Below, piece after piece: positions 27,249 to 43,656 of a stretch of 64,000 bases of DNA. Under the pieces are notes generated by a model, which did no database searches, was not told the DNA's origin, and saw only the letters and a program-made list of their open reading frames with translations. Position numbers and translations under genes: made by a program. The DNA is from Fibrobacterota bacterium (GTDB lineage Bacteria; Fibrobacterota; Fibrobacteria; UBA11236). How positions within the stretch are numbered: the stretch's first letter is position 1; each line of letters begins with the position of its first letter. The stretch is taken from assembly GCA_947466585.1 (NCBI GenBank), contig CANIEU010000009.1:14923-78922 (forward strand), in the 5' to 3' direction.

Positions 27249-27265
27249 GCGCGCGGTAGAGTGAC

Positions 27266-28108: not shown

Positions 28109-28262
28109 ATTCGACAGTTTTCGGCCCGATCCAGCCGTTTTAGAGGGGATTCGCGGGTTCAAAAGGGGAGAGGGTCGAATACCTTTCCGGGCGCAGCCGG
28201 GAACCGGTACCCCCTGGAGACTCGAAAACCCCGTAATTACGCAAAGAATACCGATCCTATCC

Positions 28263-28290
28263 TTGCAAATTCGTCCCCTTTTTCTACACT
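28263..28290 (+). promoter_or_regulatory. Sigma-70-type promoter for rpsP
   Basis: TTGCAA (28263-28268), 16-nt spacer, TACACT (28285-28290), about 30 nt upstream of the rpsP start. Confidence 0.55.
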
Positions 28291-28323
28291 TTGCCCTCCA
28301 ATTCCGAATTCGGGAGTAATACT

Positions 28324-28881
28324 TTGGCCGTTGTCATTCGCCTCGCCCGCATGGGCAAAACGCACAAGCCGTTCTATCGCATCACCGTCGCGGACTCGCG
28401 TGCGGCCGCCACCGGCAAGTTCCTCGAGCAAATCGGACACTACGATCCGAACCTGAACCCGCCGGCCATCAAGGTCGACGAGGCCAGCGCGCTCAAATGG
28501 CTCAAGAACGGCGCCCAGCCGAGCGACACCGTGCGCTCGCTGTTCTACCGTCAGGGTTTGATGGAGAAGTCGACGCTGACCCGCAAGGGCAAGGCTTCGG
28601 CCGATTCCGCGCTCAAGACCCGCGAATCCTTCCAGGCCAAGAAGCCCAAGGTGCACAAGAAGGCCAAGGAGAAGGCAGAAGCCAACGCCAAGGCCGCTGA
28701 AGCCGCCGCTGCTGCTGAAGCCAAGGCTGCTGCTGAAGCCAAAGCCGCCGCCGAAGCTGCTGCTGCCGCAGAAGCCGCAGCCGCTACCGCTGCTGCTGAA
28801 GAAGCCAAGGCTGCTGCCGAAGCACCGGCCGCCGAAGCTCCCGCTGCTGCTGCTGAAGAAGCCGCTCCGGCCGCCGAGTAA
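28324..28881 (+). CDS. rpsP: 30S ribosomal protein S16 with ~90-aa Ala/Lys/Glu-rich C-terminal extension
   Basis: LAVVIRLARMGKTHKPFYRITVADSRAAATGKFLEQIGHYDP is the S16 core. A TTG start at 28324 matches the canonical N-terminus; an upstream ATG at 28291 is the alternative. The tail is the KAAAEAAAA repeats. Confidence 0.85.
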   Translation: MAVVIRLARMGKTHKPFYRITVADSRAAATGKFLEQIGHYDPNLNPPAIKVDEASALKWLKNGAQPSDTVRSLFYRQGLMEKSTLTRKGKASADSALKTRESFQAKKPKVHKKAKEKAEANAKAAEAAAAAEAKAAAEAKAAAEAAAAAEAAAATAAAEEAKAAAEAPAAEAPAAAAEEAAPAAE

Positions 28882-28911
28882 CGCATTCTCCGGTTCGCCG
28901 GAAATCTTTAA

Positions 28912-28943
28912 AGCCGTCGGAGCGATCCGGCGGCTTTTTTGTT
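28912..28943 (+). terminator. Rho-independent terminator downstream of rpsP
   Basis: gccgtcgg-agcgat-ccggcggc followed by T6. Confidence 0.6.
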
Positions 28944-28986
28944 GCCCCCGGATTCCAAAAGCCGAATTCTTAACTTCCAGCACGTC

Positions 28987-29589
28987 ATGAAATCCTATCA
29001 CATCACCTTGGGCATCCTCGCGCTGTTCCTGCTGGTATCCTTCCCGGGTGCGCACGATCGCGTGACCTGGTGGCTTGAAGTCTTTCCGATCTTCCTGGCT
29101 GCGCCCGTGGTGTGGCATTTCGGACGCAGCGGGCGACTCAGCCCGTTTCTGCAGGGTGTGATCGTCTTCCACGCGCTCATCCTCTGTATCGGCGGTCATT
29201 ACACCTACGCGCTCGCGCCGCCGGGGGAGTGGGTCCGCGATCTAGGCATCGGAATGCGCAACAACTACGACAAGCTCGGGCATTTCATGCAGGGCGTCAC
29301 CCCGGTGATCGCGATCCGCGAAATCCTGATGAGGCAGAATCGCTGGGAGCCGAATACAGGCTTCATGGCCACGCTGGCTGTGCTCGCCGCAGGCGGCATC
29401 AGTGCCGTATACAAGGTTGTGGAAATGATCGCCGCCTTGGTTATGGGCGGCGGGGCCGATGCCTTTTTGGGGACGCAAGGTTTTGTTTGGGACACCCAAA
29501 CCGACATGGCCACCGCCTTGGTCGGCGCCCTATTCGCGGTGTTGTTGTTCTCCAAAACGCACCTGCGCTCTATGACTGCTTCCGAATAG
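28987..29589 (+). CDS. DUF2238-family (YjdF-like) membrane protein
   Basis: Multi-TM protein whose conserved core (CIGGHYTYA..P.G.W) is typical of DUF2238. Start chosen at ATG 28987 (MKSYHITLG). Confidence 0.6.
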   Translation: MKSYHITLGILALFLLVSFPGAHDRVTWWLEVFPIFLAAPVVWHFGRSGRLSPFLQGVIVFHALILCIGGHYTYALAPPGEWVRDLGIGMRNNYDKLGHFMQGVTPVIAIREILMRQNRWEPNTGFMATLAVLAAGGISAVYKVVEMIAALVMGGGADAFLGTQGFVWDTQTDMATALVGALFAVLLFSKTHLRSMTASE

Positions 29590-29652
29590 CGAATTCCGAT
29601 CCGCCGAAGGTGGATCGATCTTCGGCGGACTTCGGGGCTTCGCCCCTCAGCT

Positions 29653-29692
29653 TCCAACAACCTACTACCTACTACCTCCTACCTACTACTTT
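29653..29692. repeat. Solo CTACC-type repeat arm (half element of the GGTAG/CTACC family)
   Basis: cctactacctactacctcctacctactac. No partner arm within ~200 nt. Confidence 0.6.
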
Positions 29693-29698
29693 TTACCT

Positions 29699-30226
29699 AT
29701 GCCTGTTCTTCCTAACGATTACACGCTTGTCGGCGTCTTGCAAAAACCCTACGGCCTGCTCGGCGACATGAAGGTGCGCCCTGAGACCTTCGACTTCGCT
29801 CGTCACGAAACCCTCAAGCGGGTCTTCGCCCGCAACCACGCCGGTGACATCACCGAGCTCGAGGTGCGCGCCACGCGCGGCGACAGTCAGTTCTGGTATC
29901 TCAAGTTCGAAGGTCGCCGCACCCCCGAATCGCTAATCGAATTGTGCGGTCAGGAGCTGTTGATCGACTCTGCGGAGCGTTTGCCGCTTCCCGAGGGCAT
30001 GGTGTACTTCTCCGAGCTGCCGGGCATGCGCGTGCACGACGAGCGCGGCGAAGACATCGGCGAAATTCTCGAAGTGCGTGAAACCGGACCGGTGGAATAT
30101 CTCGCGGTGCGTTCGGTCAAAGGCGAACTCCTGGTTCCCTGGACCGACCACTTCGTCAAGAAAATCGACAAGCAAACCCGTATCGTGCACATGGATTTGG
30201 CCGAGTTGCGCGGCGTGATCCTCTAG
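29699..30226 (+). CDS. rimM: 16S rRNA processing protein RimM
   Basis: RimM N-domain (LVGVLQKPYGLLGDMKV) and a PRC-barrel C-domain. Confidence 0.85.
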   Translation: MPVLPNDYTLVGVLQKPYGLLGDMKVRPETFDFARHETLKRVFARNHAGDITELEVRATRGDSQFWYLKFEGRRTPESLIELCGQELLIDSAERLPLPEGMVYFSELPGMRVHDERGEDIGEILEVRETGPVEYLAVRSVKGELLVPWTDHFVKKIDKQTRIVHMDLAELRGVIL

Positions 30227-30229
30227 CCC

Positions 30230-31021
30230 ATGCGCATAGACGTCATCACGCTTTTCCCTGAAATGTTCGAGGCACTCAGCGCCAGCATTCCGGGGCGCGC
30301 CATGACGGCGGGGGCGCTGGAATTACACACGCATCAACTGCGGAACCACGCCATTAACAAGCACAACCAGGTCGACGACGCCCCCTACGGTGGCGAAGCG
30401 GGCATGGTGCTGCGGCCCGAACCGTTGCGCGACGCGCTGCAAGCCCTGCTGGCAAACGTTTCCGAACCCGATACGCTCCCGGGCGCTGCCCGGGAAAAGC
30501 CCCGCGTGATTCTGATGAGCGCGCAGGGGAGACTGCTCGATCAACAACGCGCCGCCGAAATCGCTGCGATGGAGCGCGTGGTTCTCGTCTGCGGACATTA
30601 CAAGGGTGTGGATCAGCGCTTCGTCGACACCTACGTCGACGAGCAAATCTGCGTCGGTGAATACGTGCTCTCGGGCGGAGAATTGCCCGCCATGGTGTTG
30701 ATCGATGCCGTGGCGCGCCTGTTGCCCGGCGTGATCGGCGATATCGAATCCGCCGACACCGATTCGTTTGCGCGCCCGGGTCGACTGGGTTGGCCGGTGT
30801 ATACGCGCCCCGCCCACTTCGAAGGAAAAAGCGCTCCCGAAGTTTTGCTTTCGGGGCATCACGCCCTGATCGAAACCTGGCGGACGCTCGAAAGTTTGCG
30901 GCTTACCCGCGAGAACCGACCCGACTTGTTGGAGCGTTTTCCGGTAACCCAAGCCGAGCAAAACCTGATGGATCCGCCCCGGAAGAAGCGTAAATCCCGC
31001 CGTCCGGCCACTGGAGAATAA
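30230..31021 (+). CDS. trmD: tRNA (guanine37-N1)-methyltransferase TrmD, basic C-terminal tail
   Basis: MRIDVITLFPEMF, DDAPYGGEAGMV and SGG..PAMVLIDA are present. The extra DPPRKKRKSRRPATGE tail is unusual. Confidence 0.9.
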   Translation: MRIDVITLFPEMFEALSASIPGRAMTAGALELHTHQLRNHAINKHNQVDDAPYGGEAGMVLRPEPLRDALQALLANVSEPDTLPGAAREKPRVILMSAQGRLLDQQRAAEIAAMERVVLVCGHYKGVDQRFVDTYVDEQICVGEYVLSGGELPAMVLIDAVARLLPGVIGDIESADTDSFARPGRLGWPVYTRPAHFEGKSAPEVLLSGHHALIETWRTLESLRLTRENRPDLLERFPVTQAEQNLMDPPRKKRKSRRPATGE

Positions 31022-31174
31022 CGCTTTTTTAGTTAATTAGTCGATTTTAGCTAGAAGTGCCGAGATCTAGTCCCAATCTCCTGAGCAAGGTAAAATCGAT
31101 TATTTGATTCGTTAAATCGGTAAATAAGCTTTAAAAAAGCCATATCCCCATAATATTTCGATACTATAGGGATA
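31022..31174 (+). promoter_or_regulatory. AT-rich regulatory region upstream of the carH-like gene; candidate operator
   Basis: Strongly AT-rich in a GC-rich genome. Contains direct repeats aaatcgattat.../aaatcggtaaat and an inverted repeat ctaga-N11-tctag. Confidence 0.45.
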
Positions 31175-32236
31175 ATGATTGAAACCGAAACGGACTTCCT
31201 TACCACCTCGCAGGCCGCTCTTTTACTCCAAGTTCACGAATCCTCTGTGAAGCGGTGGAGCAACTCGGGCGAACTGAAACTCGAAAAAACCTCCGGCGGT
31301 CACCGCCGTATTCGTTTCGAGGCGCTTCTCGATTTCGCCCGGGCCAAGGATCCGGGAGGAGATCTCTTGTTCTTCGCCCCGCACGAAGAGGAAGTCGCAC
31401 GCGCGGCGCTCGATGCCCGCGACCGCAATCAGTTCGACGGGGTGGGCGAACTGATCCTGCGCTTTTGCGACACGGAACCTCCGCGTTGGCTCGCTCATCT
31501 GATCCGCTACCTGGAGGGACCGTGCGGCATTCCCCTCACGCGCATCTTCGACGCCGGCATCGGCGGGGCGCTGGCCGATGTCGGCACCCAATGGCAAAAC
31601 GGGTCGCGCACGATCGCGCTCGAACACCGCTTCACTCAAAAGATCCTCGACGCCCTGCATGCCATTCTCACCCATCTCGAAGATGTGGACGACGCCGAAG
31701 AATCGGCGGAGCAAGCCTTGCGTGCGGTGCATGCCCTGGATCCCAAAAACGCAGTAGCATCGGATCGAGGAACCGTGGAAGGGCGCAAGCGCCCCCATGC
31801 GGTGGTGGGTTGCTCCGAGGGCTGCCACCATGAGATCGGCGCCTTGATGGCGCGCATCCTGTTGCAACGCGCCGGCTGGAGCGTAACCTATCTCGGTGCC
31901 AACGTGCCGTTCGAAGAGATGGCCGGTATTCAGGAGCTGGAACGCGCGCAAGTGATGTGCGTTTCTTTCGTGTCGCCGCTGGGTGCTGGGGATGTGCGCC
32001 GCTGCCTCAAAGTGCTGAACGCCTTGCAACAGCCCAATGCGCCCTATCGGCTCGTCACCGGAGGCCTGTCGTACCTTGCGGGCACCGAAGACCAGTATGA
32101 AACGCGCATCCCCATCAAGTTCGTGGAATCCATGGAAGGCTTTGAGCGGTGGTTCCGCACACAATTTGCCAAGGAGTTGGCGCGAGCCGCCAATTTCCGC
32201 AATGCAGTGGCCGGGGTCGCTGGGGTACCCCGATGA
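31175..32236 (+). CDS. CarH/LitR-like light-responsive regulator (MerR HTH + B12-binding domain)
   Basis: N-terminal MerR HTH (LTTSQAALLLQVHESSVKRWSNSGELK). C-terminal cobalamin-binding Rossmann with HAVVGCSEGCHHEIGALMARILLQRAGWSVTYLG, a H-x-x-G motif resembling the CarH E-x-H-x-x-G. Confidence 0.75.
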   Translation: MIETETDFLTTSQAALLLQVHESSVKRWSNSGELKLEKTSGGHRRIRFEALLDFARAKDPGGDLLFFAPHEEEVARAALDARDRNQFDGVGELILRFCDTEPPRWLAHLIRYLEGPCGIPLTRIFDAGIGGALADVGTQWQNGSRTIALEHRFTQKILDALHAILTHLEDVDDAEESAEQALRAVHALDPKNAVASDRGTVEGRKRPHAVVGCSEGCHHEIGALMARILLQRAGWSVTYLGANVPFEEMAGIQELERAQVMCVSFVSPLGAGDVRRCLKVLNALQQPNAPYRLVTGGLSYLAGTEDQYETRIPIKFVESMEGFERWFRTQFAKELARAANFRNAVAGVAGVPR

Positions 32237-34026
32237 AGGCCGCGATGAATGATGAGATGAATCGTAACAGGAAATGTGACATGCCTTCCAAGATGTCCAT
32301 TGAGGACAATCAATCGAGCCTGCCCGCATGGTTGCGCGCGCAATCCGATACCTTGTCCACCGAAACCTCGATGGAATATCTAGCGCGGCACAGTCACTCC
32401 TTCCGCTATGCCGCGCGCTTTTTACCCCCGCCGTTCGACACGCATGTCGCCGATGTGTACGCCTTTTGCCGATTCACCGACGATCTGGTCGACGGGTCCA
32501 CGCTGCCTGTTCCCGAGTTGCGCGCGCGCCTCTCCGACTGGCGGCGCTTGGCGCAACAAGCGCATAGAGGAGTGCCCACGGGCTTCGCTCTGCTCGACCG
32601 CCCCCTGATCGACATGGGGCGGCGCGGCATCCCCTTTGATTACGCCAGCGAGTTGATCGCTGGTGTGGCCATGGATTTGGAGCCGCGCCGCTACGCCACA
32701 CTCGCAGAACTCGATCTTTACAGTTACCGCGTGGCCTCAGTGGTAGGCCTGTGGCTCACCCGGCTCGTCGGAGTGAACGATCCGCAGGTACTGAAGCGTG
32801 CCGCCGATCTGGGTCACGCCATGCAGGTGACCAATATCCTCCGGGATGTGGGGGAGGACTGGGCCGTGGGTCGTTTGTATCTGCCGCTCGATGTGCTGGC
32901 CCGTCATGGAGTTCGCGAGGAAGACTTGGCAGAGTCCATGGCTTCCGCATCCGTCGATTCCCTTCCTCTGGGCTGGCAGGGTGCGATGGAAGAACTGATG
33001 TCCCTCGCCGATGCCCGCTACTGGAGTGCCTTCGGTGCGATTCCCGCCTTGCCCCGGTTTTTCCGCGTTCCCGTCGCGGTGTCGGGTCTTGTGTATCGCG
33101 ACATCCACACCGCCATCCGCCGCAACCGGTATGACAACCTGCGCTGCCGGGCACACACCTCGCGCACTCGTAAACTGTGGCTGGGCCTGAAGGCCCGCAT
33201 GCAAGTGGGCCTTTCAGGTATCGGCATCGGAGTCGAACGAGAGCAGGTGACTTCGCATTCCCTCAAGGACGCGCCGGAAAGTGCGGCAGCGCGGGGGTTC
33301 AGCCTGCGGAAGGCCGGCCTGCGCATCGTGCTACCGCTGTTCCTGTTGTTGTTGCTGTTTCTCGCGGGTGCCGCCGCAGGTTCGGCGCAGCCTCAAACTC
33401 CGCCCGCGCTCGAGTCGAGCGCAGAAGCGCGGGCGCGCCGGGAGTTGACTCGCATCGAGACCGAAATGCGGGGGCAACCGGAGAACCTCGATCTGCAGCT
33501 GCAACGCCTGCGTATTTTGCATCCCCTCAGCGTTCAGGATGCGGCGCTGCTGCCCGTGTCGCGGTCGGCGCGCGATCAGGCCGAACGCACGGTACGTGAA
33601 AATCCGGGAACGGCGCTGCAATCCAAGCAGCGTGGGGCAGAGCCGCTCAACCTGCTGCTGGCCTACGCAGGCGCGCTCGACGTGGTGGAAGCGCGCCATG
33701 CCTTTTGGCCGCGGGCCCGCCTCGAACCCTTGGAGCGCGGATTGCCGCGACTCGATTCGGCGGTGCAGCGCGATCCCGACAACGCCGAGATCCGTTATTT
33801 AAGACTCACCAGCAGCTATTACCTGCCGTTTTTTCTGGGGCGCAAATGGAGCGTGCGCGAAGATTTTAAGGCGTTGGCGGAATTGTTGCCGCGCGCGCGC
33901 GACGCCTACCCGGCGGAGTGGTATGCCGCCATCACCGATTTCGTACTGGAGAAGGGCGATCTCGGCGAGCGCGAGAGAAGCCGGTTGCAACGCGCGCGGC
34001 GCGAAGCGTTCGCGCGGAACCCGTGA
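32233..34026 (+). CDS. crtB: Phytoene synthase fused to ~250-aa C-terminal TM-anchored domain of unknown function
   Basis: N-terminal ~330 aa carry squalene/phytoene synthase motifs (YAFCRFTDDLVD, MQVTNILRDVGED). A hydrophobic helix IVLPLFLLLLLFLAGAAAG and a charged alpha-helical domain follow in the same frame. ATGA overlap with the regulator. Confidence 0.8.
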   Translation: MKAAMNDEMNRNRKCDMPSKMSIEDNQSSLPAWLRAQSDTLSTETSMEYLARHSHSFRYAARFLPPPFDTHVADVYAFCRFTDDLVDGSTLPVPELRARLSDWRRLAQQAHRGVPTGFALLDRPLIDMGRRGIPFDYASELIAGVAMDLEPRRYATLAELDLYSYRVASVVGLWLTRLVGVNDPQVLKRAADLGHAMQVTNILRDVGEDWAVGRLYLPLDVLARHGVREEDLAESMASASVDSLPLGWQGAMEELMSLADARYWSAFGAIPALPRFFRVPVAVSGLVYRDIHTAIRRNRYDNLRCRAHTSRTRKLWLGLKARMQVGLSGIGIGVEREQVTSHSLKDAPESAAARGFSLRKAGLRIVLPLFLLLLLFLAGAAAGSAQPQTPPALESSAEARARRELTRIETEMRGQPENLDLQLQRLRILHPLSVQDAALLPVSRSARDQAERTVRENPGTALQSKQRGAEPLNLLLAYAGALDVVEARHAFWPRARLEPLERGLPRLDSAVQRDPDNAEIRYLRLTSSYYLPFFLGRKWSVREDFKALAELLPRARDAYPAEWYAAITDFVLEKGDLGERERSRLQRARREAFARNP

Positions 34027-34814
34027 TGCGTATCGATATGTCTCAATCCCTCCCTGTTTTTTCGAACCTGCTTGCGCGCGGCTTCGAAATCGTATTTGAC
34101 CTTGTGAAGAGTGTCGGCCTCGCCGGGGTGCATTGGAGCATCCCCGCTGGCCTGGCGCAGCGCCTGCCGGCCGATCGACCCGTGGTGCTGTTCGGAAACC
34201 ACTCCAGCAATTGGGATGGTTTTCTGTACCGTGACCTGCAAAAGAAACTGCGCCCCGGCATGCCGATCTACAGCCTGATGCTCGAGCGTGAATTGCGGCG
34301 TCTGCCGCTCTTTCGTGCCCTGGGCGGCATCGGTATTGATTCGACCTCTCCCGGCTCCGTGGCTCGTGCCTTGCGGTCTGCAAGAGCGCTGCGAGGGCCC
34401 TCTTTTACTTCCGCCGGCTTTTTCTTCAGCGTGTTTCCGCAAGGCTCCACCTATCCCGCCGGCAAACGCCCGCTGGGATTTCAGGAAGGCCTCCGGCACT
34501 TTGCAAAAGCGCTGGGCCCGGTGACCTTGTTGCCGGTGGCGTTGCAATTCGAACTGCTGGGCAGCGTGCGTCCGCATGCCTTTGTTTCCGTAGGCGAGCC
34601 GATCGCGGTTCCAGAATCCGCGGGGAAGGTCATTGACCTCGGCTCCATTCCCTCGCTCGATGTGCTCGAAGCACAGGTGACGGCTCTGTTGGATGGGCTG
34701 AACGCCGATCTCTCGGCACGCGGCGAAGCCGCGGTTTCAATACCTGGCGAAGCCACGGTTTCAATGCCGGGCGAAGCGGCGGTATCCAACGTAGTAGGGG
34801 AGAGTCCCGTATGA
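34026..34814 (+). CDS. Lysophospholipid/1-acyl-sn-glycerol-3-phosphate acyltransferase-family protein (likely carotenoid glycoside acyltransferase, CruD-like)
   Basis: H-x4-D acyltransferase motif (NHSSNWDGF) and FPQGST. The C-terminal 27-bp x3 tandem repeat encodes GEAAVSIPGEATVSMPGEAAVS. ATG overlaps the crtB stop. Confidence 0.65.
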   Translation: MRIDMSQSLPVFSNLLARGFEIVFDLVKSVGLAGVHWSIPAGLAQRLPADRPVVLFGNHSSNWDGFLYRDLQKKLRPGMPIYSLMLERELRRLPLFRALGGIGIDSTSPGSVARALRSARALRGPSFTSAGFFFSVFPQGSTYPAGKRPLGFQEGLRHFAKALGPVTLLPVALQFELLGSVRPHAFVSVGEPIAVPESAGKVIDLGSIPSLDVLEAQVTALLDGLNADLSARGEAAVSIPGEATVSMPGEAAVSNVVGESPV

Positions 34815-36022
34815 TCGCTGCCCTGTTGCATGCCGGCTTCTTCGCCGCAAACCTCGAGTCGGTAGCGGCCACCGCTTCGTTGTGCATCCTTGCGGGCATG
34901 GTTTGCATGGTCGTATTCAACACCCTGACTGCGCCACGCGCAGGGGGCCAAAAGTCGCCAACGGTGTTCCCGAAGGTGAGTTTGCTGGTGCCCGCGCGCA
35001 ACGAGGCGCACAACGTGCCCATTCTCGCCGCGCATTTCGAAAAGCTGGAGTATCCGAATTTGGAGATCATTCTCCTCGACGATGCTTCCGACGATGGCAC
35101 GGGGGCGGCGCTCGGAGATCTGGTAAACCTCCCGGCATTGCGCGGGCGCGCCCGCTCGTTGCGGGGCGCAGAATTGCCCACCGGTTGGCTCGGGAAAAAC
35201 TGGGCCTGTCATCAACTCGCTCAAACTTCCTCGGGAGATGTGCTGATCTTTTGCGATGCCGATGCGCGCCCCGGGCCGCAAGCGGTGACCCGCACCGTGG
35301 CGTTGTTGGAACACTATGGCGTCGGCTGCGCCACCTTGATGCCGCGCCAGGTGCTCGGGTCGTGGGCCGAGCGCGCGGTGATTCCGGTACTGCTGCACAT
35401 CTCGCTGTTCTGCTTCCTTCCCATCGCCCTCGTGCCGCGCCTGCGCTGGAAGCGCCTCGGGGTGGGGAACGGGCAATGGCTTTCGTTCCGTCGCTCCGCA
35501 TACGCCGCGGTGGGCGGCCATGCGGGCGTGCGCGACAAGGTGGTGGAAGATATCGCCCTTGCGCAGCGTGCCCAGACCCATGGAAACGGTCTGGTCGTGG
35601 GGTTGGCGACCGATACGCTTGCCGTGCGCATGTACCGAAACTTCCGCGAAGTGTGGGATGGTTTCGGCAAAAACGTGTTCGTGCTCACAGGCGGTACGCT
35701 GTGGCAGACGCCGTTCTTCGGCTTGTTTTTTGCGCTGATCCACATTCTTCCCTGGCTGCTCTTCCTCCTGCATCCGCAGTTGTGGGGGCTGCCGCTCGCT
35801 TTGCTTTTGGTTTGTCGCGTGCTCACCGCCCGTGCCTTGGGCGAACCGCTGGGGGCCATTGCCGGACAAGTCGCCGGGTCCATCCTGGTTCCCCTCATCG
35901 TCGCGCGCTCGCTGTTCGATTTCCGTTTTCATCGCCTGCAGTGGAAGGGCCGCATTCTGAATGCCGGTCCGCCTCCGGTGCAAAGTTTGGCCCAGAATCG
36001 GGCCTCCAAGGAGTCTTTGTGA
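34811..36022 (+). CDS. Family-2 glycosyltransferase (likely carotenoid glycosyltransferase, CruC/CrtX-like role)
   Basis: GT2 motifs (SLLVPARNEAHNV, ILLDDASDDGT, FCDADAR) and C-terminal TM helices. It sits inside the carotenoid operon. Confidence 0.7.
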   Translation: MIAALLHAGFFAANLESVAATASLCILAGMVCMVVFNTLTAPRAGGQKSPTVFPKVSLLVPARNEAHNVPILAAHFEKLEYPNLEIILLDDASDDGTGAALGDLVNLPALRGRARSLRGAELPTGWLGKNWACHQLAQTSSGDVLIFCDADARPGPQAVTRTVALLEHYGVGCATLMPRQVLGSWAERAVIPVLLHISLFCFLPIALVPRLRWKRLGVGNGQWLSFRRSAYAAVGGHAGVRDKVVEDIALAQRAQTHGNGLVVGLATDTLAVRMYRNFREVWDGFGKNVFVLTGGTLWQTPFFGLFFALIHILPWLLFLLHPQLWGLPLALLLVCRVLTARALGEPLGAIAGQVAGSILVPLIVARSLFDFRFHRLQWKGRILNAGPPPVQSLAQNRASKESL

Positions 36023-37551
36023 ATTCCGTGACCGAACAAAAAAAAGGGGCAGTGCCCCGAACCGCCATCGTGATCGGCTCCGGCTTCGGCGGGCTGTCCG
36101 CCGCTATTCGCCTGCAAAGCCGGGGTATTCAGGTCACACTGGTGGAGCAACGGGAAAAGGTCGGCGGCCGCGCCTACCAAATGAAAGAAGGCGGGTACAC
36201 CTTCGACATGGGCCCGTCCCTCATCACCGCGCCGCAGATCCTCGACAAGGTGTTTGCCTGTGCGGGCACATCGTTGTCGGCAGCCTTGCCGCTGTTGCCG
36301 CTCGATCCGTTTTACCGCGTGTTCTTTCACGATCACAGCCGCTTCGAGTACAACGGATCCCCGGAAGGCATGAAGGCGCAGATGCGCCAGTACAATGCCG
36401 CCGATGCGGACCGCTACGACGATTTCATGAAGGCCGTGGCGCCCATTTATGCGGAAGTGATCGAGAAGGGATTGGGCAGTCGTTCCTTCGGGAATCCCTG
36501 GACGATGATTCGTTTTATCCCCACGGTGATTCGCCTCGGGGCGTGGCGTACTGCGACGCAATTCGCCAACAAGTACTTCAAGGACTGGCGTCACCGCTTC
36601 GTGTTCAGCTTCCATTCGCTGTACATCGGCGGCAACCCGTTTCACTGCCCGGCGATTTACCAGATGATTCCGTTTTTGGAGCGGGCACAGGGTGTCTGGT
36701 ACACGCCGGGCGGCATGTATTCGTTGACGCGGGCACTGGAAAAGGCCTTTATCGGACTCGGTGGTGTGGTGCGCACGTCCACCCCGGTAACGCGCATCCG
36801 GGTTGAAGGAGGCAGAGCGACCGGTGTAGAAATTCCGGAGGGATTCCTTCCCGCCGATCTGGTGGTGAGCAACGCCGACGTGGGATTCACCTACGCGAAA
36901 CTGATCGCACCGGAGCATCGCCGCAAGTGGACTGACGCGAAGGTGAACCGTCAGGAATTCACGATGAGTTGCTTCCTGATCTTCTTGGGCGTGAAGAAGC
37001 GCTATCCGGAATTGGCCCATCATACCCTGATTCTGGCGGAGCGCTATAAGGATCTGTTGAAAGACATTTTCAAGAACAAGATTCTGCCTGGTGATTTCAG
37101 CATGTACGTGCACGCGCCCACGCGCACCGACGACACCATGGCGCCGCCAGGGTGCGAGAGTCTGATGGTGCTGGTTCCGGTGGCGAATCAGGCGTCGGGT
37201 ATCGACTGGAAGACTCAGGCGCAGCCCTATGCGGACAAGATCCTGGACTTTTTGGAACAGTGGGGTTTGACTGATTTACGGGAGAACCTGGAAGTCTTTA
37301 AGCTGTTCACGCCCGATGATTTCGAATCGGAGCTTTCGGCGTGGCGGGGCAATGCCTTCGGCATCGAGCCGCGTTTGTCGCAGACGGGTTACTTCCGCCC
37401 GCACAACCGGAGCGAGGATCTGGCGGGGTTGTACTTTACCGGGGCGGGCACGCATCCCGGCGCGGGTGTTCCCGGCGTGATGCTTTCTGCCGAGGCCGCA
37501 GAGCGGTGTATCGTCGAGGATTGGCCCGCGTTAACGAAGAAAGGTTTATGA
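36019..37551 (+). CDS. crtI: Phytoene desaturase
   Basis: FAD-binding IVIGSGFGGLSAAIRL and a CrtI-family C-terminus (GLYFTGAGTHPGAGVPGV). GTG start overlaps the upstream stop. Confidence 0.9.
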   Translation: MNSVTEQKKGAVPRTAIVIGSGFGGLSAAIRLQSRGIQVTLVEQREKVGGRAYQMKEGGYTFDMGPSLITAPQILDKVFACAGTSLSAALPLLPLDPFYRVFFHDHSRFEYNGSPEGMKAQMRQYNAADADRYDDFMKAVAPIYAEVIEKGLGSRSFGNPWTMIRFIPTVIRLGAWRTATQFANKYFKDWRHRFVFSFHSLYIGGNPFHCPAIYQMIPFLERAQGVWYTPGGMYSLTRALEKAFIGLGGVVRTSTPVTRIRVEGGRATGVEIPEGFLPADLVVSNADVGFTYAKLIAPEHRRKWTDAKVNRQEFTMSCFLIFLGVKKRYPELAHHTLILAERYKDLLKDIFKNKILPGDFSMYVHAPTRTDDTMAPPGCESLMVLVPVANQASGIDWKTQAQPYADKILDFLEQWGLTDLRENLEVFKLFTPDDFESELSAWRGNAFGIEPRLSQTGYFRPHNRSEDLAGLYFTGAGTHPGAGVPGVMLSAEAAERCIVEDWPALTKKGL

Positions 37552-37883
37552 GGGTTGTCGTGGAAGGAGATCGGACAACCAGTTCGTGCTCGGAGCGGCT
37601 CCGCTCCGGACGCTATAAACAGGCCCTGCGGGCCAGTTTGTCGCTAGGCTATCCGGTGCTCGCCGCTCTTCCGCGCGAACCGGTGCGCCCGCTCTCCACG
37701 ATGACAGTTTGCAAGCTTTCCCAGATCAAAACACCTTGGCACGACCGCCGGGCGGAGGCGGAAAAACTTCTCGAAGCGGAGCGAGACGCGGGGTCCCCTC
37801 TGGGGACGTCGAGCGAGCATCGAAAGTTTTTCCGTCGACCATCCCGGCGCATGCACGAGCCCTCGTTTGGAAATGGTCGATGA
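37548..37883 (+). CDS. Possible small hypothetical protein between crtI and the cyclase (uncertain)
   Basis: 111-codon ORF whose ATG overlaps the crtI TGA (tATGAg) and whose TGA overlaps the cyclase ATG (cgATGa). GC3 (~65%) is lower than in neighbours, so it may be a non-coding spacer. Confidence 0.3.
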   Translation: MRVVVEGDRTTSSCSERLRSGRYKQALRASLSLGYPVLAALPREPVRPLSTMTVCKLSQIKTPWHDRRAEAEKLLEAERDAGSPLGTSSEHRKFFRRPSRRMHEPSFGNGR

Positions 37884-38602
37884 GTTTCTGGAATTCTCAC
37901 CTCACATACCTCACGATCGACCTGCTCACGATCGCGTTTCCGCTCGCGTACAGCTTTACCGCACGGTCGGGCTTCAGCAAGCACCTGGGTCGCGTATGCG
38001 CGGCCATCGCATTGGTCGCCGTCCCCATGCTCGTCTGGGACGCCGTGTTTACGGCCCACGGAGTCTGGGGATTCAATCGAGATTACATCCTCGGCTTCTC
38101 TCCATTCGGGTTACCGGTGGAGGAAATCCTCTTCTTCCTCTGCATTCCCTTCGCCTGCCTGTTCATCTACGACACCGTTAAAAATTTCCCCCGCCTCGCA
38201 CTGCCCGAACGCCCCGTCCGCATTCTTGCCGGCCTGCTCGCCGTCGTGTTGATCGCGTTCGCTACGGCGAACACACACCGCGCCTACACGCTGCTCGCCT
38301 GCCTCGGCGCCGCGCCTTTCCTGGTCGCCCTCGCCGCTGGTCACCTCCGCTTTCGCCTCGGCCACATCGCCAGTGCCTACATGTTCCACCTGATTCCGTT
38401 CTTCCTCGTCAACGGAATCTTGACCGGCATGTTTACCGCGCAACCCGTGGTGTGGTACAACAACGCCGAAAACCTCGGCATCCGTTTGGGCAGCATTCCC
38501 ATTGAAGATGCCGCATACTCCATGATCCTACTGTTCGGTGCGATCTTTCTACTGGAACGACCGACCTCGCAGAAAACCGAAAAACCCGGAAGCCCACTGT
38601 GA
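37880..38602 (+). CDS. Lycopene cyclase domain protein (CrtYcd-type, fused heterodimeric cyclase)
   Basis: ~240-aa polytopic membrane protein with the duplicated cyclase-domain pattern (W..HL.YL..DL...FP and a second half with PVEE.LFF). Position between crtI and crtZ supports the call. Confidence 0.6.
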   Translation: MSFWNSHLTYLTIDLLTIAFPLAYSFTARSGFSKHLGRVCAAIALVAVPMLVWDAVFTAHGVWGFNRDYILGFSPFGLPVEEILFFLCIPFACLFIYDTVKNFPRLALPERPVRILAGLLAVVLIAFATANTHRAYTLLACLGAAPFLVALAAGHLRFRLGHIASAYMFHLIPFFLVNGILTGMFTAQPVVWYNNAENLGIRLGSIPIEDAAYSMILLFGAIFLLERPTSQKTEKPGSPL

Positions 38603-39039
38603 TTCTCGACCTGCTGATTTTCTTCTCCGTCTTTTTTCTGATGGAAGCTGTCGCCTGGGCCGCGCACAAATACGTGATGCACGGGTTTTTGTGGTCGCTG
38701 CATGAATCGCACCATCTGCCGCGCACGGGGGCGTTCGAGAAGAACGACTGGTTCGGCGCGTTCTTCAGCTTGGTGGCCATGGCGCTGTTCGCGGCGGGGT
38801 ATTTCATCGACGTCCGCTTTACCGCGGCGGGGTTGGGCATGACGGCGTACGGCTTCGCCTACCTGTTTCTGCACGACATTCTCAATCACAAACGTTTCGG
38901 AATTCACATCAAGCCGAACAATCGTTATCTGCGGTCCGTGCTGCAGTCCCATCGCATCCACCATGCGACCCAGGGCAAGGACGGCTGCGTGTCGTTCGGG
39001 TTTCTGGTACCGATGCGAGCCAAAAGGCGCATTTTTTAA
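38599..39039 (+). CDS. crtZ: Beta-carotene 3-hydroxylase
   Basis: His boxes AAHKYVMHG, HESHH, HDILNHKRF and HRIHHAT..GKDGCVSFGF are collinear with Pantoea CrtZ. GTG start overlaps the upstream stop. Confidence 0.85.
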   Translation: MILDLLIFFSVFFLMEAVAWAAHKYVMHGFLWSLHESHHLPRTGAFEKNDWFGAFFSLVAMALFAAGYFIDVRFTAAGLGMTAYGFAYLFLHDILNHKRFGIHIKPNNRYLRSVLQSHRIHHATQGKDGCVSFGFLVPMRAKRRIF

Positions 39040-39213
39040 AAAAACCGCTCCGGATTCGTCGGAACAGGCGCTTTTTTGCCGGCCCGAATTGGCAATTTCG
39101 GCCACAATTCCTATCATTTCGCCCCAATCTTACCGGATGCGCGTGTTACGGGTTCCAAGGAACCGACCGCTGTCCAGACGGCTTTTGAGAAATTTTCGAG
39201 AAGGAAACGTGCC

Positions 39214-39582
39214 ATGCATCCCAAAATCGCCCTCGTCCACGCCAGCGTTCACCGCACCGATCTGCCGGAATTCCGTTCCGGCGACACCGTCAGCGTCGAC
39301 TTCAAGGTTATCGAAGGCAACAAGGAGCGCGTCCAGACCTTCACGGGCGTTGTGATCCAACGCCGCGGTTCCGGCGTGTCGGCCACCTTCACGGTGCGCA
39401 AGATCTCGAACGGCATCTCGGTGGAGCGTATTTTCCCGCTCGAGTCGCCCCGCCTCACCGGCATCAAGGTCAGCCGCCTCGGCAAGGTCCGTCGCGCCCG
39501 TATCTTCTACATGCGCGGACTGTCTGGCAAGAGTGCCCGCATCAAGGAGCGCAAGGTTCCTTACGCTGGCAAGAAGGCGTAA
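39214..39582 (+). CDS. rplS: 50S ribosomal protein L19
   Basis: [29 protein letters not shown] is present, with RBS aaggaaa 8 nt upstream of the ATG. Confidence 0.9.
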
Positions 39583-39607
39583 GAAGCTCTTTCCGAGCAA
39601 ACACAAT

Positions 39608-39645
39608 GACCCGCTTTCGGCTCGCGCCGGAGCGGGTTTTTTGTT
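39608..39645 (+). terminator. Rho-independent terminator after rplS
   Basis: acccgctttcgg-ctcgcg-ccggagcgggt followed by T6. Confidence 0.7.
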
Positions 39646-39650
39646 GCCTA

Positions 39651-39795
39651 GAAGTGGAGTGGTTAGTGGATAGTGAATAGGGTGCTGTGGCTGGAGAGGT
39701 GACTCGTGTTTCGAGAAAACTACCCGCAGCATCCTTATTTGCATGTCTAACCACTATCCACTACCCACTATCCACTAACCACTCTTATCTACCTT
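39651..39795. repeat. Compound inverted-repeat element, AGTGG/CCACT type (copy D)
   Basis: Left arm gagtggttagtggatagtg is the exact reverse complement of the right arm cactatccactaaccactc. The right arm also contains ccactacccacta, shared with copy E. ~60-nt spacer. Confidence 0.8.
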
Positions 39796-39801
39796 CCCTC
39801 C

Positions 39802-41814
39802 GTGGCCACCTCCGAACTCATCCGTCTTACCGGCGTGGGGCCCAAGCGCCTCGCGGCGCTGCAAGCGGCGGGGATCCAGACCTTTCGCGACTTGGTGTAC
39901 CGGGTGCCGCGCCGCTACGTCGACCGCACGCGGCTGACGCCGATCGCCACGCTGAACGAGGGTGACGACGCCTTCTTCGTGGCCCGTATCGACTCGGTCA
40001 AAACCCCGCCGGGCCGTCTCAACGTCACCGTTTCGGATGAGACGGGCAGCTTCGAACTCGCCTTCTTCAACGCCGCGCAATTCCTGCGTCAAACGCTGCT
40101 CCCCGGCCGCCGCATCTCGGTGGCGGGCGTGGTCAAACGCTTCCGCACCTTGCAGATCGCGCACCCCGAGTGGGAGATTTTGCGGGAGGATCAAGACCCG
40201 CGCGGCGGCTTGCTGCCGTTGTACCCGCTCACCGAGGATTTGGCAGAGACCCGCGCCGAGCACAAGTTGCTGCAAAAGCTCGCCCTCGAAGCCCTCGACA
40301 CTTACGCATTCTCAGATCCGATTCCGTTGCCTGAGCGCACCTTCCTGGGCCTGCGTCCCGAGAAGGACGTCCTCAAAATCCTCCACGCGCCCGAGACCCT
40401 TGCCGATGTGGCCGCCGCGCTCGCCGAGTTGAAGACCCGCGAGCTGTGGCCGCTGTGCAGGGCCCGTGCCGAGGCCCGCCGCCTGCGTCGCACGCGCGGC
40501 AGGGCCTTTCCTTCTACTCCCACCGTTGAAGCGGCAGAGAAGGCCGTACGCGCGGCCTTGCCCTTCACGCTCACCGGCGGGCAGGAAGAGGTGCTTGCCC
40601 AGATTCACGCTGCAATGGGCGGAGGGGAGCAGGGACGAGGCCAGTTCTTCGGATTGCTGCACGGCGATGTGGGTTCGGGTAAAACGGCTGTGGCCTTGCT
40701 CTCTGCCGTGCGCGTGGTTGCGTCGGGATCACAAGTGGCCTTGCTCGCCCCAACCGAAATACTGGCGGTGCAGCATTACCGCAATCTGGAACCGTGGCTC
40801 CGCGCCGCCGGCATCGAGATCGCACTCCTCACGGGAGATACTGCGCCCGCGGACCGTCGCCACATCGAAGCGAAGCTGGCGGACGGAACCTTGCCGATCA
40901 TCGTGGGGACGCACGCCTTGCTCTCCAGCGGCACGGTGTTCAAAGATCTGCGTTATGTGCTGGTGGACGAGCAGCATCGCTTCGGCGTGGAGCAGCGCGC
41001 CCTGCTGACGCAGAAGGGCGTGGAGCCGCACGTGCTCTACCTCTCCGCCACGCCGATCCCGCGTACGTTGGCGCAGTCGCTGTACGGCGATCTCGAGGTA
41101 TTGACCCTGGCCGAAAAACCTGCGGGCCGCCTGCCGGTGAAAACGCGCATCGTGCCCGCCGCCAAGCAGGCGGAGCTGTTGCAGTTCCTCCGGGGCGAGA
41201 CGCTAACGAACAATAATCAGGTTTACTGGGTGGTGCCGCGCATCAGTTCGAGCGGCGAAGAAGAAGATGGTGTTGCCGGAATCGAGAGTGCAGTCAAACG
41301 CTTGAAAGCCGCCGCACCTAAAAACGAATGGAAGGTGGAGTCGGTTCACGGCCGGGTTCCCTCTGCCGATCGGGACCGCATCCTGTCCGCTTTTCGGCGG
41401 GGCGAAATCCACGCCCTGGTGGCGACCACGGTGATCGAGGTGGGCGTGGACGTGCCGGGCGCGAACCTGATGGTGGTGGACGGCGCGGATCGCTTCGGCA
41501 TGGCGCAGTTGCATCAGCTGCGCGGTCGCACGGGGCGCGGCGCGGCGCAGGCGTGGTGCTTTTTACTGGAGCCCTCGCCGCTGGGTTGGAACGAAGACAC
41601 TGAGGCCCGTCTGCGCGATTTCGCCGGTACCGAAGACGGGTTCGCGATTGCGGAGATGGACCTGAAGCGACGCGGTGCGGGCAGCCTCGACGGCAAGCAG
41701 CAAAGCGGGTTCGGCCTGTTGCGCTTTGCGGATATTCTGGAGGATGCGGATTTGATCCGCGAACTCGGCGCGCGCGCGGAGGCGTTCGCCGAGAGGGGCG
41801 TTGCCGGAACTTAA
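39802..41814 (+). CDS. recG: ATP-dependent DNA helicase RecG
   Basis: Wedge/OB N-domain, SF2 helicase motifs (GDVGSGKT, DEQHRFG, SATPIPRT), and a TRG motif region. GTG start. Confidence 0.9.
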   Translation: MATSELIRLTGVGPKRLAALQAAGIQTFRDLVYRVPRRYVDRTRLTPIATLNEGDDAFFVARIDSVKTPPGRLNVTVSDETGSFELAFFNAAQFLRQTLLPGRRISVAGVVKRFRTLQIAHPEWEILREDQDPRGGLLPLYPLTEDLAETRAEHKLLQKLALEALDTYAFSDPIPLPERTFLGLRPEKDVLKILHAPETLADVAAALAELKTRELWPLCRARAEARRLRRTRGRAFPSTPTVEAAEKAVRAALPFTLTGGQEEVLAQIHAAMGGGEQGRGQFFGLLHGDVGSGKTAVALLSAVRVVASGSQVALLAPTEILAVQHYRNLEPWLRAAGIEIALLTGDTAPADRRHIEAKLADGTLPIIVGTHALLSSGTVFKDLRYVLVDEQHRFGVEQRALLTQKGVEPHVLYLSATPIPRTLAQSLYGDLEVLTLAEKPAGRLPVKTRIVPAAKQAELLQFLRGETLTNNNQVYWVVPRISSSGEEEDGVAGIESAVKRLKAAAPKNEWKVESVHGRVPSADRDRILSAFRRGEIHALVATTVIEVGVDVPGANLMVVDGADRFGMAQLHQLRGRTGRGAAQAWCFLLEPSPLGWNEDTEARLRDFAGTEDGFAIAEMDLKRRGAGSLDGKQQSGFGLLRFADILEDADLIRELGARAEAFAERGVAGT

Positions 41815-41972: not shown

Positions 41973-42101
41973 GGTACGTCTTTGGTGACGGGAGCAAGAT
42001 TGCACCCGCGAGGGACTCGCGAAGGATGCAAAATGCGCGGGTCCATAACGGTTTGCTGCGAAAATACCGGCTTTAAATGACGGGATTGTTCAAAAGGCGC
42101 C

Positions 42102-43219
42102 TTATCCTTTTGGTTGAGGTTGCTTGAGGTGCTGGAGTTCGCGCTTTAGTTCCCGCATAAGTTCCCGTTTCAATTCGGCTTCGGTAGGGAGGTGGAGCTT
42201 GTATCGACTGGCAAATATTTTTTGGGCCTTTTCATTTCCGAGCGTATACCGGACGACAGCGTCATTCTTATCGGTACAGAGTAAGAGCCCTAAGGTGGGC
42301 TGGTCTGTACCACATCGGCGCTTTTGGTCGAAGTAGTTGACATAAAGCTGCATCTGTCCCAAATCTTGGTGCGTGAGCTTTCCCGTTTTGAGATCGATGA
42401 TCACGAAGCACTTGAGCACGGTGTGGTAGAAGACGAGATCGATGTAAAAATGGTCGCCGTCCAACGTGATGCGCTCCTGCCTAGAGATGAATGCGAACCC
42501 ACGTCCCAATTCAAATAGAAACGACTGAAGGTTGCTGATAAGGCCCGATTCCAGTCCTGATTCTACGAGCCTTGGGGATTCGGGTAAGCCGAGGAATTCG
42601 ATTACGATCGGGTCTTTGAATACATCACCAGCAGACTTGTTTCCTGACCTTTTTGGGCGAGTCTCAAGAGACCTTTTTTGTCTTTGCTGAGCGCGAGTCG
42701 TTCATAGAGTAATCTGTTGATTTGACGTTCGAGTTCGCGTGCGGACCAGTTGTTTCGAGTCGCTTCGATTTCGTAGAAGGAACGTCCCTGTGGGTTGTCC
42801 ACCCTTAAGAGGTTTCGATAGTGGGTCCAGGAGAGGCCTAGGTTAATCTCACCGTGTTGAAAAGAATTTCCACTCACTGCGTGGAAATTCTCTCCCTCTT
42901 TGATCAGCCTTGGATAGGTTTGATAAAATTGTTTCATGTAGGCGAGATTCTGTGGCGAGTACCCAGGGCCCAGATCTTTCGTCATTCTTTTTGAAAGTTG
43001 TCGGATAAGGCCTCTTCCATATTCGGCCCGTCCGTTGCCTTTTTGTTCTTCTTCTACGATTTCGCGACCTACAAGCCAAAAGGCAATGACCTGCGCACTG
43101 TTCACAGAACGGGCAGCAGTGTCCCTTGCTTTTTCGAGTATTCCCAGAATCCTTTTGTAAAAGCCGGGTTTTCCGCGATTCGTTTTAGGCCCGACAATAG
43201 TGTGGGATTTGGTCAGCAT
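42102..43219 (-). pseudogene. DUF1016/YhcG-like PD-(D/E)xK nuclease, disrupted by a frameshift
   Basis: The N-terminal 205-aa ORF (42602-43219) and C-terminal ORF (42102-42509) belong to one family. The conserved KDPIVIEFLGLPE...GRGFAFISRQERI...IDLVFYH...IIDLK region is in a different frame from the N-part. The single-nt shift lies near 42600-42625. Confidence 0.7.
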
Positions 43220-43497
43220 AGGCTTCCTTTGTCAGAAGAAGCCTGAGAAGTTGATTTTTGGCGGTCTTAAATGCGAGTGACGATGGGTGCAATTTGAAGG
43301 GGAATAATGGGAACCTAAAAGAGGTCTGAAAATCGAGACGAAATGATTTGTCGCCGTTATCGAATTTCGGGTTTTGCCTTTCGAGGCGGTTTACAGGGAA
43401 TGTTCTGTGCCTAAGTTCGAGATGGTCAGGATGATCGATCTGATTTGTAATCCGGTTTCACCCAACGGTTCCATGGACTCGAACAAAGGAGACTCCA

Positions 43498-43656
43498 ATG
43501 CCCAAGCGTCGCACCCACCGGTATTTGATGATTACCTGCATGATCGCTCTCGCGTTGATTACGGCGGAGACGGCTCATCTTGAGGGTGCACAGGACCGGG
43601 CTCCGGCTTCGGCGCCGGTGGTGTTTGAGCATGCCCTGATGGCCAGTAACAGCTAG
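43498..43656 (+). CDS. Small hypothetical membrane protein (52 aa) with strong SD
   Basis: aaaggagactccaATG; the product MPKRRTHRYLMITCMIALALITAETAHLEG... has one predicted TM helix. Too short for the ORF track. Lies in the low-GC islet. Confidence 0.3.
   Translation: MPKRRTHRYLMITCMIALALITAETAHLEGAQDRAPASAPVVFEHALMASNS

Follow-up and report, generated by a model that had tools for sequence, protein, structure and literature searches.

A carotenoid operon standing between trmD and rplS in a clade of uncultured Fibrobacterota, probably autonomous and of old date

The genes rpsP, rimM, trmD and rplS form one of the conserved operons of bacteria, and a set of pigment genes in their midst raises the question of how it came there, what it makes and whether it is expressed together with them. 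Such a set is found in a 64,000-nucleotide stretch of a Fibrobacterota genome (assembly GCA_947466585.1, contig CANIEU010000009.1, positions 14,923 to 78,922 of the forward strand), hereafter called the window, to whose positions all coordinates refer unless another contig is named. The four genes are all present there in canonical order and on one strand, as Pfam matches and coordinates show, but they are not contiguous; the operon is interrupted twice, by a DUF2238 gene between rpsP and rimM and by seven same-strand carotenoid (crt) genes spanning 8.2 kilobases (kb) between trmD and rplS. We consider it likely that the seven genes form an autonomous operon, switched by light through its own regulator, which yields a thermozeaxanthin-like product, was inserted long ago and is insulated from the ribosomal genes. 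The genes of the locus, all on the plus strand, are as follows.

28324-28881, plus strand: rpsP, ribosomal protein S16 (Pfam Ribosomal_S16, 79.5 bits, residues 9-67 of 185)
28939-29589, plus strand: DUF2238 membrane protein (Pfam DUF2238, 143 bits; gene-caller start 28987)
29699-30226, plus strand: rimM (Pfam RimM and PRC_RimM)
30230-31021, plus strand: trmD (Pfam tRNA_m1G_MT, 169 bits)
31022-31174: AT-rich gap of 153 base pairs (bp) between trmD and the regulator gene
31175-32236, plus strand: B12-binding regulator of CarH/CtMerR type, first gene of the operon (Pfam HTH_17 and B12-binding)
32233-34026, plus strand: CrtB fusion protein of 597 residues (SQS_PSY, 212 bits)
34023/34026-34814, plus strand: PlsC-family acyltransferase, CruD-like (Pfam Acyltransferase, PF01553)
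34811-36022, plus strand: family 2 glycosyltransferase (GT2), CruC-like (Pfam Glycos_transf_2 and Glyco_transf_21)
36019-37551, plus strand: phytoene desaturase CrtI (NCBIfam crtI_fam)
37880-38602, plus strand: fused lycopene cyclase of CrtYc/Yd type (two Lycopene_cyc domains; TIGR03462)
38599-39039, plus strand: beta-carotene 3-hydroxylase CrtZ (FA_hydroxylase, 43.9 bits against a cut-off of 31)
39214-39582, plus strand: rplS, ribosomal protein L19 (Pfam Ribosomal_L19, 151 bits)
39802-41814, plus strand: recG

The open reading frame (ORF) map, together with Pfam and NCBIfam, bears out an earlier note on this DNA, made from the letters alone, which had described a carotenoid operon dividing trmD from rplS and whose gene assignments prove right. 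The same genes are returned by independent gene callers on identical contigs in several metagenome assemblies. As the note had also said, most of the genes overlap by 1-4 nucleotides (nt): overlaps of 4 nt (ATGA or GTGA) are found at five of the six crt-gene junctions, the one between crtB and the acyltransferase gene being of 1 nt if translation begins with the ATG at 34026.

How unusual this placement is can be judged from a comparison anchored on trmD in 80 diverse genomes. Downstream of trmD and on the same strand, rplS is found in 58 of them, with a gap of at most 400 bp in 46 (median 144 bp) and of 0.5-5.4 kb in the other 12, and it is missing from the examined flank in 22; crt genes between trmD and rplS are found in none of the 80. 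In the nearest of these genomes (L007), a more distant member of Fibrobacteria, rpsP, rimM, trmD and rplS are contiguous, with trmD and rplS 23 bp apart; this is the ancestral state, and the crt placement is derived. By trmD, the closest species representative is a Fibrobacteria metagenome-assembled genome (MAG) at 59% identity, and the best named matches of GyrA are Fibrobacteria MAGs at 64-72%, followed by Chitinispirillia, Fibrobacterales and Fibrobacter at about 60%; the window therefore comes from a lineage of Fibrobacterota that is uncultured and poorly sampled.

Relatives that carry the operon were found by tracing CrtB homologues to their contigs. In six of these, the crt operon stands directly 3' of trmD as in the window, at trmD identities of 88% (L097), 81% (L087), 73% (L091), 72% (L092), 69% (L090) and 63% (L088), and the divergence of the crt genes parallels that of the flanks (CrtI 80-82%, CrtZ 69-71% identity). 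In four other relatives (L093, L094, L099 and L100), the cassette is found at four unrelated chromosomal sites; when complete, it runs regulator-crtB-extension protein-acyltransferase-GT2-crtI-cyclase-crtZ in these relatives, but L093 is without the extension protein and L094 without the regulator. The acyltransferase and GT2 genes are absent from the subgroup L088-L092 and kept in L097, L098 and the window, and they make up a separable tailoring module, since relatives without both retain the rest of the pathway. A metagenome scan with the cyclase for closer relatives returned only relatives of at most 45% identity, in which the cyclase is accompanied by crtZ and in some cases crtI, with no trmD, rplS, acyltransferase, GT2 or extension gene nearby. 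Neither flanking direct or inverted repeats nor integrase or tRNA genes were found beside the crt block of the window, and the GC content of its genes, both overall and at third codon positions (GC3), matches that of the flanking genes without a compositional break. An insertion by a mobile element was considered and rejected on the missing repeats and the missing compositional anomaly.

The earlier note had called the block an insertion and had named routine occupation of the interval in related genomes as the observation that would tell against it. The interval is indeed occupied in the related lineages of the clade and contiguous in L007; what stands is an arrangement that is unusual against the 80 genomes, but it is ancient and clade-wide, not recent. 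In our reading, the cassette is movable as a unit within the phylum and entered the trmD-rplS interval once, at an early time, after which it was inherited vertically. The DUF2238 gene is found between rpsP and rimM only in the species of the window (identical contigs L001-L004) and is absent from this position in L087-L092, and it thus interrupts the operon a second time, at a much later date. As a separate observation, the full eight-gene cassette of L099 (GCA_043745805.1, 1-13800; GyrA 69%) has a hisS-surE-gyrA block on one side and a gene for a GntR regulator on the other; in the window, these neighbour genes are found upstream of the crt operon, at a distance of 17-25 kb.

Whether the pigment genes are wired to the ribosomal ones depends on the following transcription signals.

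28910-28937, plus strand: intrinsic terminator 3' of rpsP, a 12-bp stem followed by a T-run (-22.8 kcal/mol, z -2.6)
39045-39078, plus strand: weak hairpin with U6 3' of crtZ (-9.8 kcal/mol, z +0.9)
39089-39117, plus strand: sigma-70-type promoter of rplS, TTGGCA-17-TATCAT, the only promoter-like match in 28000-40000
39608-39645, plus strand: strong intrinsic terminator 3' of rplS (-29.3 kcal/mol, z -4.5; none of 200 shuffles as good)

The first of these agrees with the earlier statement that a DUF2238 gene with a terminator upstream of it separates rpsP from rimM. The hairpin after crtZ was called by the terminator scan on the minus strand only and is at best a leaky terminator. The rplS promoter (TTGnCA-17-TATCAT) is kept in L088, L090, L091 and L092, together with the first part of the leader, even though rplS is inverted in three of them (15105-15467 in L088, 15049-15429 in L090 and 10981-11343 in L091), where it runs towards crtZ with bidirectional terminators between the two. 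In this clade, rplS is therefore a unit of its own. No convincing covarying structure was found in the rplS leader, and a search of Rfam gave no match, even at E <= 1, for the operon, the leader of rplS or the crtI-cyclase spacer. Compared with the canonical trmD operon of Escherichia coli and most bacteria, the window has the same four genes, likewise ordered and oriented, which are contiguous in L007 and most of the 80 genomes, but differs in the terminator and DUF2238 gene after rpsP, the 8.2 kb of crt genes and the separate promoter of rplS. To judge from these signals, above all the rpsP terminator and the rplS promoter, co-transcription of the trmD operon as one mRNA would not be expected.

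As to what the operon makes, the core enzymes are well defined. CrtB carries an SQS_PSY domain over residues 51-313 and two Asp-rich motifs, DDLVD and DVGED, read from the translation, and is classed on these features as a phytoene synthase, with equivalog-level NCBIfam models scoring below their cut-offs. CrtI is assigned to crtI_fam (TIGR02734) at 557 bits against a cut-off of 238. The cyclase contains two domains, being matched by PF18916 in two stretches (118 bits) and by TIGR03462 at 108 bits against a cut-off of 39. CrtZ is 46% identical over 135 residues to CrtZ of Pantoea ananatis, and its four His boxes (HxxxxH, HxxHH, HxxxxH and HxxHH) are aligned. Because CrtI and the fused cyclase are well assigned and CrtZ is this close to the Pantoea enzyme, zeaxanthin is the expected aglycone, and since no CruF (PF04240) domain was found by Pfam in the cluster or in its CrtB fusion, the 3-hydroxyls introduced by CrtZ are the only evident acceptors for further tailoring.

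The tailoring itself is suggested by the acyltransferase and GT2 genes. Their closest annotated relatives in a plasmid collection lie on pTT27 of Thermus thermophilus, the acyltransferase being 36% identical over 144 residues (E 8e-13) and GT2 42% over 299 residues (E 6e-48), and the overlapping pair has the same order, acyltransferase then glycosyltransferase, in both. The acyltransferase shows an HX4D motif (NHSSNWD, read from the translation), and GT2 has its catalytic domain and stands in the crt cluster beside the acyltransferase. The Thermus pair is annotated as the thermozeaxanthin-pathway enzymes CruD and CruC (PMC4021367). A product consisting of zeaxanthin glycoside fatty-acid esters, similar to thermozeaxanthin, is thus a reasonable prediction; the earlier note had predicted a thermozeaxanthin-type product, and the kinship of this pair with that of pTT27 and of CrtZ with the Pantoea enzyme strengthens this as a prediction by homology. 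As well, the 3' part of the acyltransferase gene contains a tandem 24-nt duplication (34722-34769), which gives a repeated octapeptide GEA(A/T)VS(I/M)P.

The pTT27 cluster resembles the window in several further respects: a B12-dependent regulator of CarH type adjoins crtB, crtI is accompanied by a protein of about 230 residues with two lycopene-cyclase domains, and the predicted chemistry runs from zeaxanthin to the glucoside and its fatty-acid ester. Unlike the window, its hydroxylase is a cytochrome P450 of CYP175A1 type in place of CrtZ, its carH is divergently oriented and of canonical MerR type, whereas the regulator of the window is CtMerR-like and the first gene of the operon, and on its megaplasmid phr, fni and a toxin-antitoxin pair lie among the carotenoid genes; moreover, its CrtB is without a C-terminal extension, whereas the window has a fusion of CrtB with a transmembrane helix and a tetratricopeptide repeat (TPR)-like domain. 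The seat of the cluster of the window within the former trmD operon is a further difference. The crtEXYIBZ cluster of Pantoea, whose zeaxanthin glucoside shares the aglycone expected here, likewise encodes CrtB, CrtI and CrtZ, but it uses the flavoprotein cyclase CrtY and another glycosyltransferase, CrtX (a member of family GT1), holds crtE inside the cluster and has neither an acyltransferase nor a B12 regulator.

The first gene of the operon bears on the question of when these enzymes are made. The best match of its product in the PDB is CtMerR (8JBS, E 1.6e-16), over both the DNA-binding and the B12 domains, and Thermus CarH (TtCarH) is matched at E 0.009 only. The N-terminal part is a winged helix-turn-helix of the MerR superfamily that aligns with the DNA-binding domain of 8JBS; it scores 40.8 bits with HTH_17 (cut-off 27) and 17.7 bits, below the cut-off, with MerR. 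The NCBIfam CarH equivalog (NF052513) gives 34 bits against a cut-off of 400, and the protein is therefore not a CarH orthologue; it would rather be a CtMerR-like member of the class of B12 photoreceptor regulators. The light-responsive members are marked by a cobalamin-binding signature of GxxW, EH (Wx9EH), GxxH with the axial His, and GxxxP (PMC11796333), which in the window reads GTQW...ALEH, GCHHEIG and GANVP, and the W, EH, HEIG and G...P columns of the alignment are invariant in eight family members and TtCarH. The term CarH-like in the earlier note thus holds for a B12-binding regulator with the full signature, but not in the strict sense, the protein being closer to CtMerR. For CtMerR, binding of adenosylcobalamin (AdoCbl), photoconversion by green light and a change from tetramer to monomer were shown experimentally (PMC11796333). 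As the best solved relative (8JBS/8JBT), it shares the GxxW/EH/GxxH/GxxxP signature with the regulator of the window, although the sequence similarity is moderate and the latter has an acidic insertion of 30-40 residues before the Rossmann domain.

Two elements precede the regulator gene.

31090-31125, plus strand: conserved upstream motif and candidate operator, with two invariant CG cores 21 bp apart
31143-31174, plus strand: imperfect palindrome or hairpin with 14-bp arms, abutting the regulator start codon (-11 kcal/mol, z -2.8)

The CG-core motif, of the form AAAtCGATT ... AAATCGGT, also written AAAACGATT ... AAtCGtt, is common to seven loci, including L093, where the operon stands at another site, and we infer that it serves as the operator of the regulator. 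L087 has the core of the palindrome, TTTCGATACT, as well, and L088, L091 and L092 have a CGATA(C/T)T element before the start codon; the palindrome may serve as a further operator or as a hairpin in translation.

These observations have to be weighed against other explanations. It is very improbable that a recently acquired pigment island landed by horizontal transfer in the trmD operon of this single genome. The several chromosomal sites of the cassette among relatives show that relocation occurs, and the AT-rich boundary at 31022-31174 departs from the flanking composition, but seven lineages share the same position with crt genes that diverge in step with their flanks, and neither the composition of the genes nor a search for repeats, integrase and tRNA genes points to an island. 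A functional coupling, by which read-through from rimM-trmD into the crt genes or from these into rplS would tie pigment to ribosome synthesis and keep the arrangement in place, is unlikely, and in this respect the earlier suggestion that read-through could couple the two sets of genes does not hold up. It would be consistent with the single strand of all genes in the window and in L092, with a post-trmD position held in lineages down to 63% trmD identity, and with the hairpins after trmD (z -1.6) and crtZ, both weak, so that some read-through is possible and the first strong terminator is met 3' of rplS. Against it stand the conserved promoter and leader of rplS and its inversion in L088, L090 and L091, where it faces crtZ and where coupling to rplS is therefore dispensable; in addition, a regulator of its own and the conserved upstream motif accompany the operon, also where it stands at unrelated sites. 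Coupling to rplS by read-through is on these signals unlikely, with some leak possible. Two points tell against an insulated operon and are to be counted as such, namely the weak hairpins and, on the input side, the promoter of the operon: upstream of the regulator, none was returned by the sigma-70 scan, and a manual look gave no convincing -35/-10 pair.

The predicted product and the light response are likewise open to challenge. GT2 and the acyltransferase might act on another hydroxyl or on another, hopanoid-like lipid, or the cyclase might give monocyclic carotenoids that are tailored otherwise, and we regard a product other than a zeaxanthin glycoside ester as rather doubtful. Several findings count in favour of such a product or tell in other ways against the pathway proposed here. 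The best NCBIfam model of GT2 is the hopanoid-associated HpnB (126 bits), ahead of the CruG equivalog NF045692 (102 bits against a cut-off of 600), both far below their cut-offs, and GT2 is no orthologue of CruG; for the acyltransferase, NCBIfam gives no match and Pfam a marginal score (26.9 against 23 bits); the CruC and CruD assignments in Thermus are themselves, we presume, annotation-based; and the cluster holds no gene for a geranylgeranyl diphosphate synthase. In the clusters of Rhodothermus marinus and Salinibacter, in which CrtB is a fusion protein, CruC and CruD of Rhodothermus act on the C-1' hydroxyl made by CruF and not on the ring 3-hydroxyl (PMC7414004). These clusters (a CruF-CrtB fusion, CruC and CruD) resemble the window in the glycosyltransferase and acyltransferase module and in a MerR-type regulator, but they depend on the CruF 1',2'-hydratase, act on the acyclic end of gamma-carotene derivatives and include a CrtO ketolase, whereas the window has CrtZ, its sole hydroxyl-introducing enzyme, and CruF was not found in it. 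Moreover, at least five lineages have both tailoring genes inside the crt operon, joined by overlaps of the kind that couples translation, and their closest annotated relatives in the plasmid collection belong to the Thermus zeaxanthin-glucoside-ester cluster; both facts speak for zeaxanthin as the substrate. For the regulator, sensing of cobalamin availability or of redox state in place of light, or action as an activator, is distinctly unlikely. What speaks for it is that His132 of TtCarH, the light-state ligand, is Gln in the regulator family of the window, which also counts against light control by the CarH route, that the DNA-binding domain is of the HTH_17 or excisionase-like kind and not canonical MerR, and that about 50-85 bp separate the conserved motif from the start codon, with the promoter unmapped. 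However, CtMerR, the closest solved relative, also has no equivalent of His132 and yet photoconverts and monomerises in light (PMC11796333), and association with carotenoid genes is the classic context of CarH and LitR; the photochemistry of the regulator may differ from that of TtCarH, as reported for CtMerR.

The operon is best described as autonomous and probably light-switched, and it may be pictured to work as follows. In the dark, the AdoCbl-bound repressor of CarH/CtMerR type would sit on the conserved motif upstream of its own gene, and in light it would let go, turning the operon on. CrtB would then produce phytoene, which CrtI would desaturate to lycopene; the fused CrtYc/Yd cyclase would close the rings to beta-carotene, and CrtZ would hydroxylate this to zeaxanthin. 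GT2 is predicted to glycosylate a 3-hydroxyl, after which the PlsC-like acyltransferase would esterify the sugar with a fatty acid. When the movable cassette settled between trmD and rplS, long ago in the clade of the window, the trmD operon would have been re-partitioned into rpsP with its terminator, rimM-trmD (in the window preceded by the DUF2238 gene), the crt operon, and rplS with its promoter and strong terminator. Because the trmD operon is split into separate units, the pigment and ribosomal genes would be neighbours and not one regulon.

In addition to the pathway itself, the operon draws attention to CrtB, whose fusion with a transmembrane helix and a TPR-like domain had been overlooked by the earlier note. 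Its parts and the corresponding separate genes are the following.

32233-33324, plus strand: CrtB phytoene synthase domain (SQS_PSY) and linker
33325-33381, plus strand: transmembrane helix, residues 365-383 (Kyte-Doolittle hydropathy 2.6)
33400-34026, plus strand: all-alpha TPR-like extension, residues about 390-597, some 200 residues, in no Pfam family
6281-6976 of L092, 11113-11841 of L094, 7001-7720 of L099 and 7001-7705 of L100: separate extension genes

The protein has 597 residues and not about 300, and its C-terminal 260 residues consist of the helix and the conserved extra domain. Among 121 CrtB homologues, the extension is conserved in 69, always in the arrangement [CrtE or CruF]-CrtB-transmembrane helix-domain, and the helix position is hydrophobic in 16 of the 18 fusion proteins examined. 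Among the fusions are one protein from Rhodocaloribacter and one from Longimicrobiales; in other phyla, the domain also follows CrtB in CrtE-CrtB and CruF-CrtB proteins, and a Rhodothermales homologue (P0058) has the same helix and extension C-terminal to CrtB as the window. In L092, L094, L099 and L100, the extension is a separate gene directly after crtB, with a product of 230-240 residues and a signal-peptide-like N-terminus. The family was seen in Fibrobacterota, Rhodothermales and lineages of Longimicrobiales type; a profile search with the extension matched at least 2774 cluster representatives, with E <= 1e-10 for 966 of them. Its AlphaFold model is all-alpha with a confidence (pLDDT) of 86, and a His, an Asp and three Arg residues are among its invariant positions, in a motif EIRYLRL-S-YYLPFF-GR. 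The extension has no Pfam family and no sequence relative in the PDB, and a Foldseek search of the fold returned nothing at E <= 1e-3.

The genetic link of this family to CrtB is firm. We offer it only tentatively, as the less probable case, that the C-terminal part of CrtB (33325-34026), whose domain is predicted to lie on the periplasmic side, is a part of bacterial carotenoid pathways that has so far gone unrecognised. TatT and BstC are TPR-like periplasmic binders of lipids and sterols, and HusA is a haemophore; by analogy with these, one may speculate that the extension binds xanthophylls or their glycoside esters and passes them from the inner to the outer membrane.

One further element lies between crtI and the cyclase gene.

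37552-37879, plus strand: structured spacer of 328 nt, corresponding to a small ORF of the earlier note (37548-37883)

Its RNA has a minimum free energy of -152.5 kcal/mol (z -3.3 against shuffles), and in most relatives crtI and the cyclase gene abut without a spacer. The small ORF had been listed as a possible member of the operon, which the present data do not support: it has no Pfam or NCBIfam match, no homologue was found for it, including in the equivalent spacer of L088, and its codon log-likelihood is -0.13 compared with 0.32 +/- 0.11 for real genes, lower than in 99.6% of real-gene windows. It was not called by gene callers, and its GC contents at second and third codon positions are 0.56 and 0.65. 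The frame is open with ATGA junctions at both ends, and only 3% of shuffles stay open, which counts the other way and leaves a small chance of a gene; with no family, no homologue, atypical codon usage and no gene call, the small ORF was rejected as an unsupported gene.

Several features of the surroundings may be added. The S16 protein of the window has, beyond residues 9-67, a low-complexity C-terminal tail rich in Ala, Glu and Lys, and the S16 proteins of relatives are likewise long (154-187 residues). The ffh gene (21613-22989) lies about 5.3 kb from rpsP, and between them (within 21613-28323) lie genes for a PAS-AraC regulator, a GSDH-family protein and two AP_endonuc_2/xylose-isomerase-like proteins. 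In L087-L091, too, genes of the GSDH and AP_endonuc_2 families are found 5' of rpsP, and in L092 ffh stands directly before rpsP. Just past recG, the GC content drops to 0.49-0.52 over 42000-46000, compared with about 0.60 elsewhere, and this stretch, which includes a gene for a Schlafen group 3-like helicase on the minus strand (43922-45796), may be acquired DNA.

No report of carotenoid synthesis in Fibrobacterota was found in the searchable literature, and the present locus predicts that a clade of uncultured and apparently non-gut Fibrobacteria is pigmented and light-responsive, and that membrane xanthophyll esters similar to thermozeaxanthin occur outside thermophiles. It also provides a clear natural case in which a deeply conserved ribosomal operon has been broken and re-wired, with a new rplS promoter, around an accessory operon, and it brings to light a protein family, large and unannotated, with a genetic link to phytoene synthase. 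Current understanding is not overturned by these findings; their value lies in a well-defined candidate operon and in a lead on the CrtB-linked domain.

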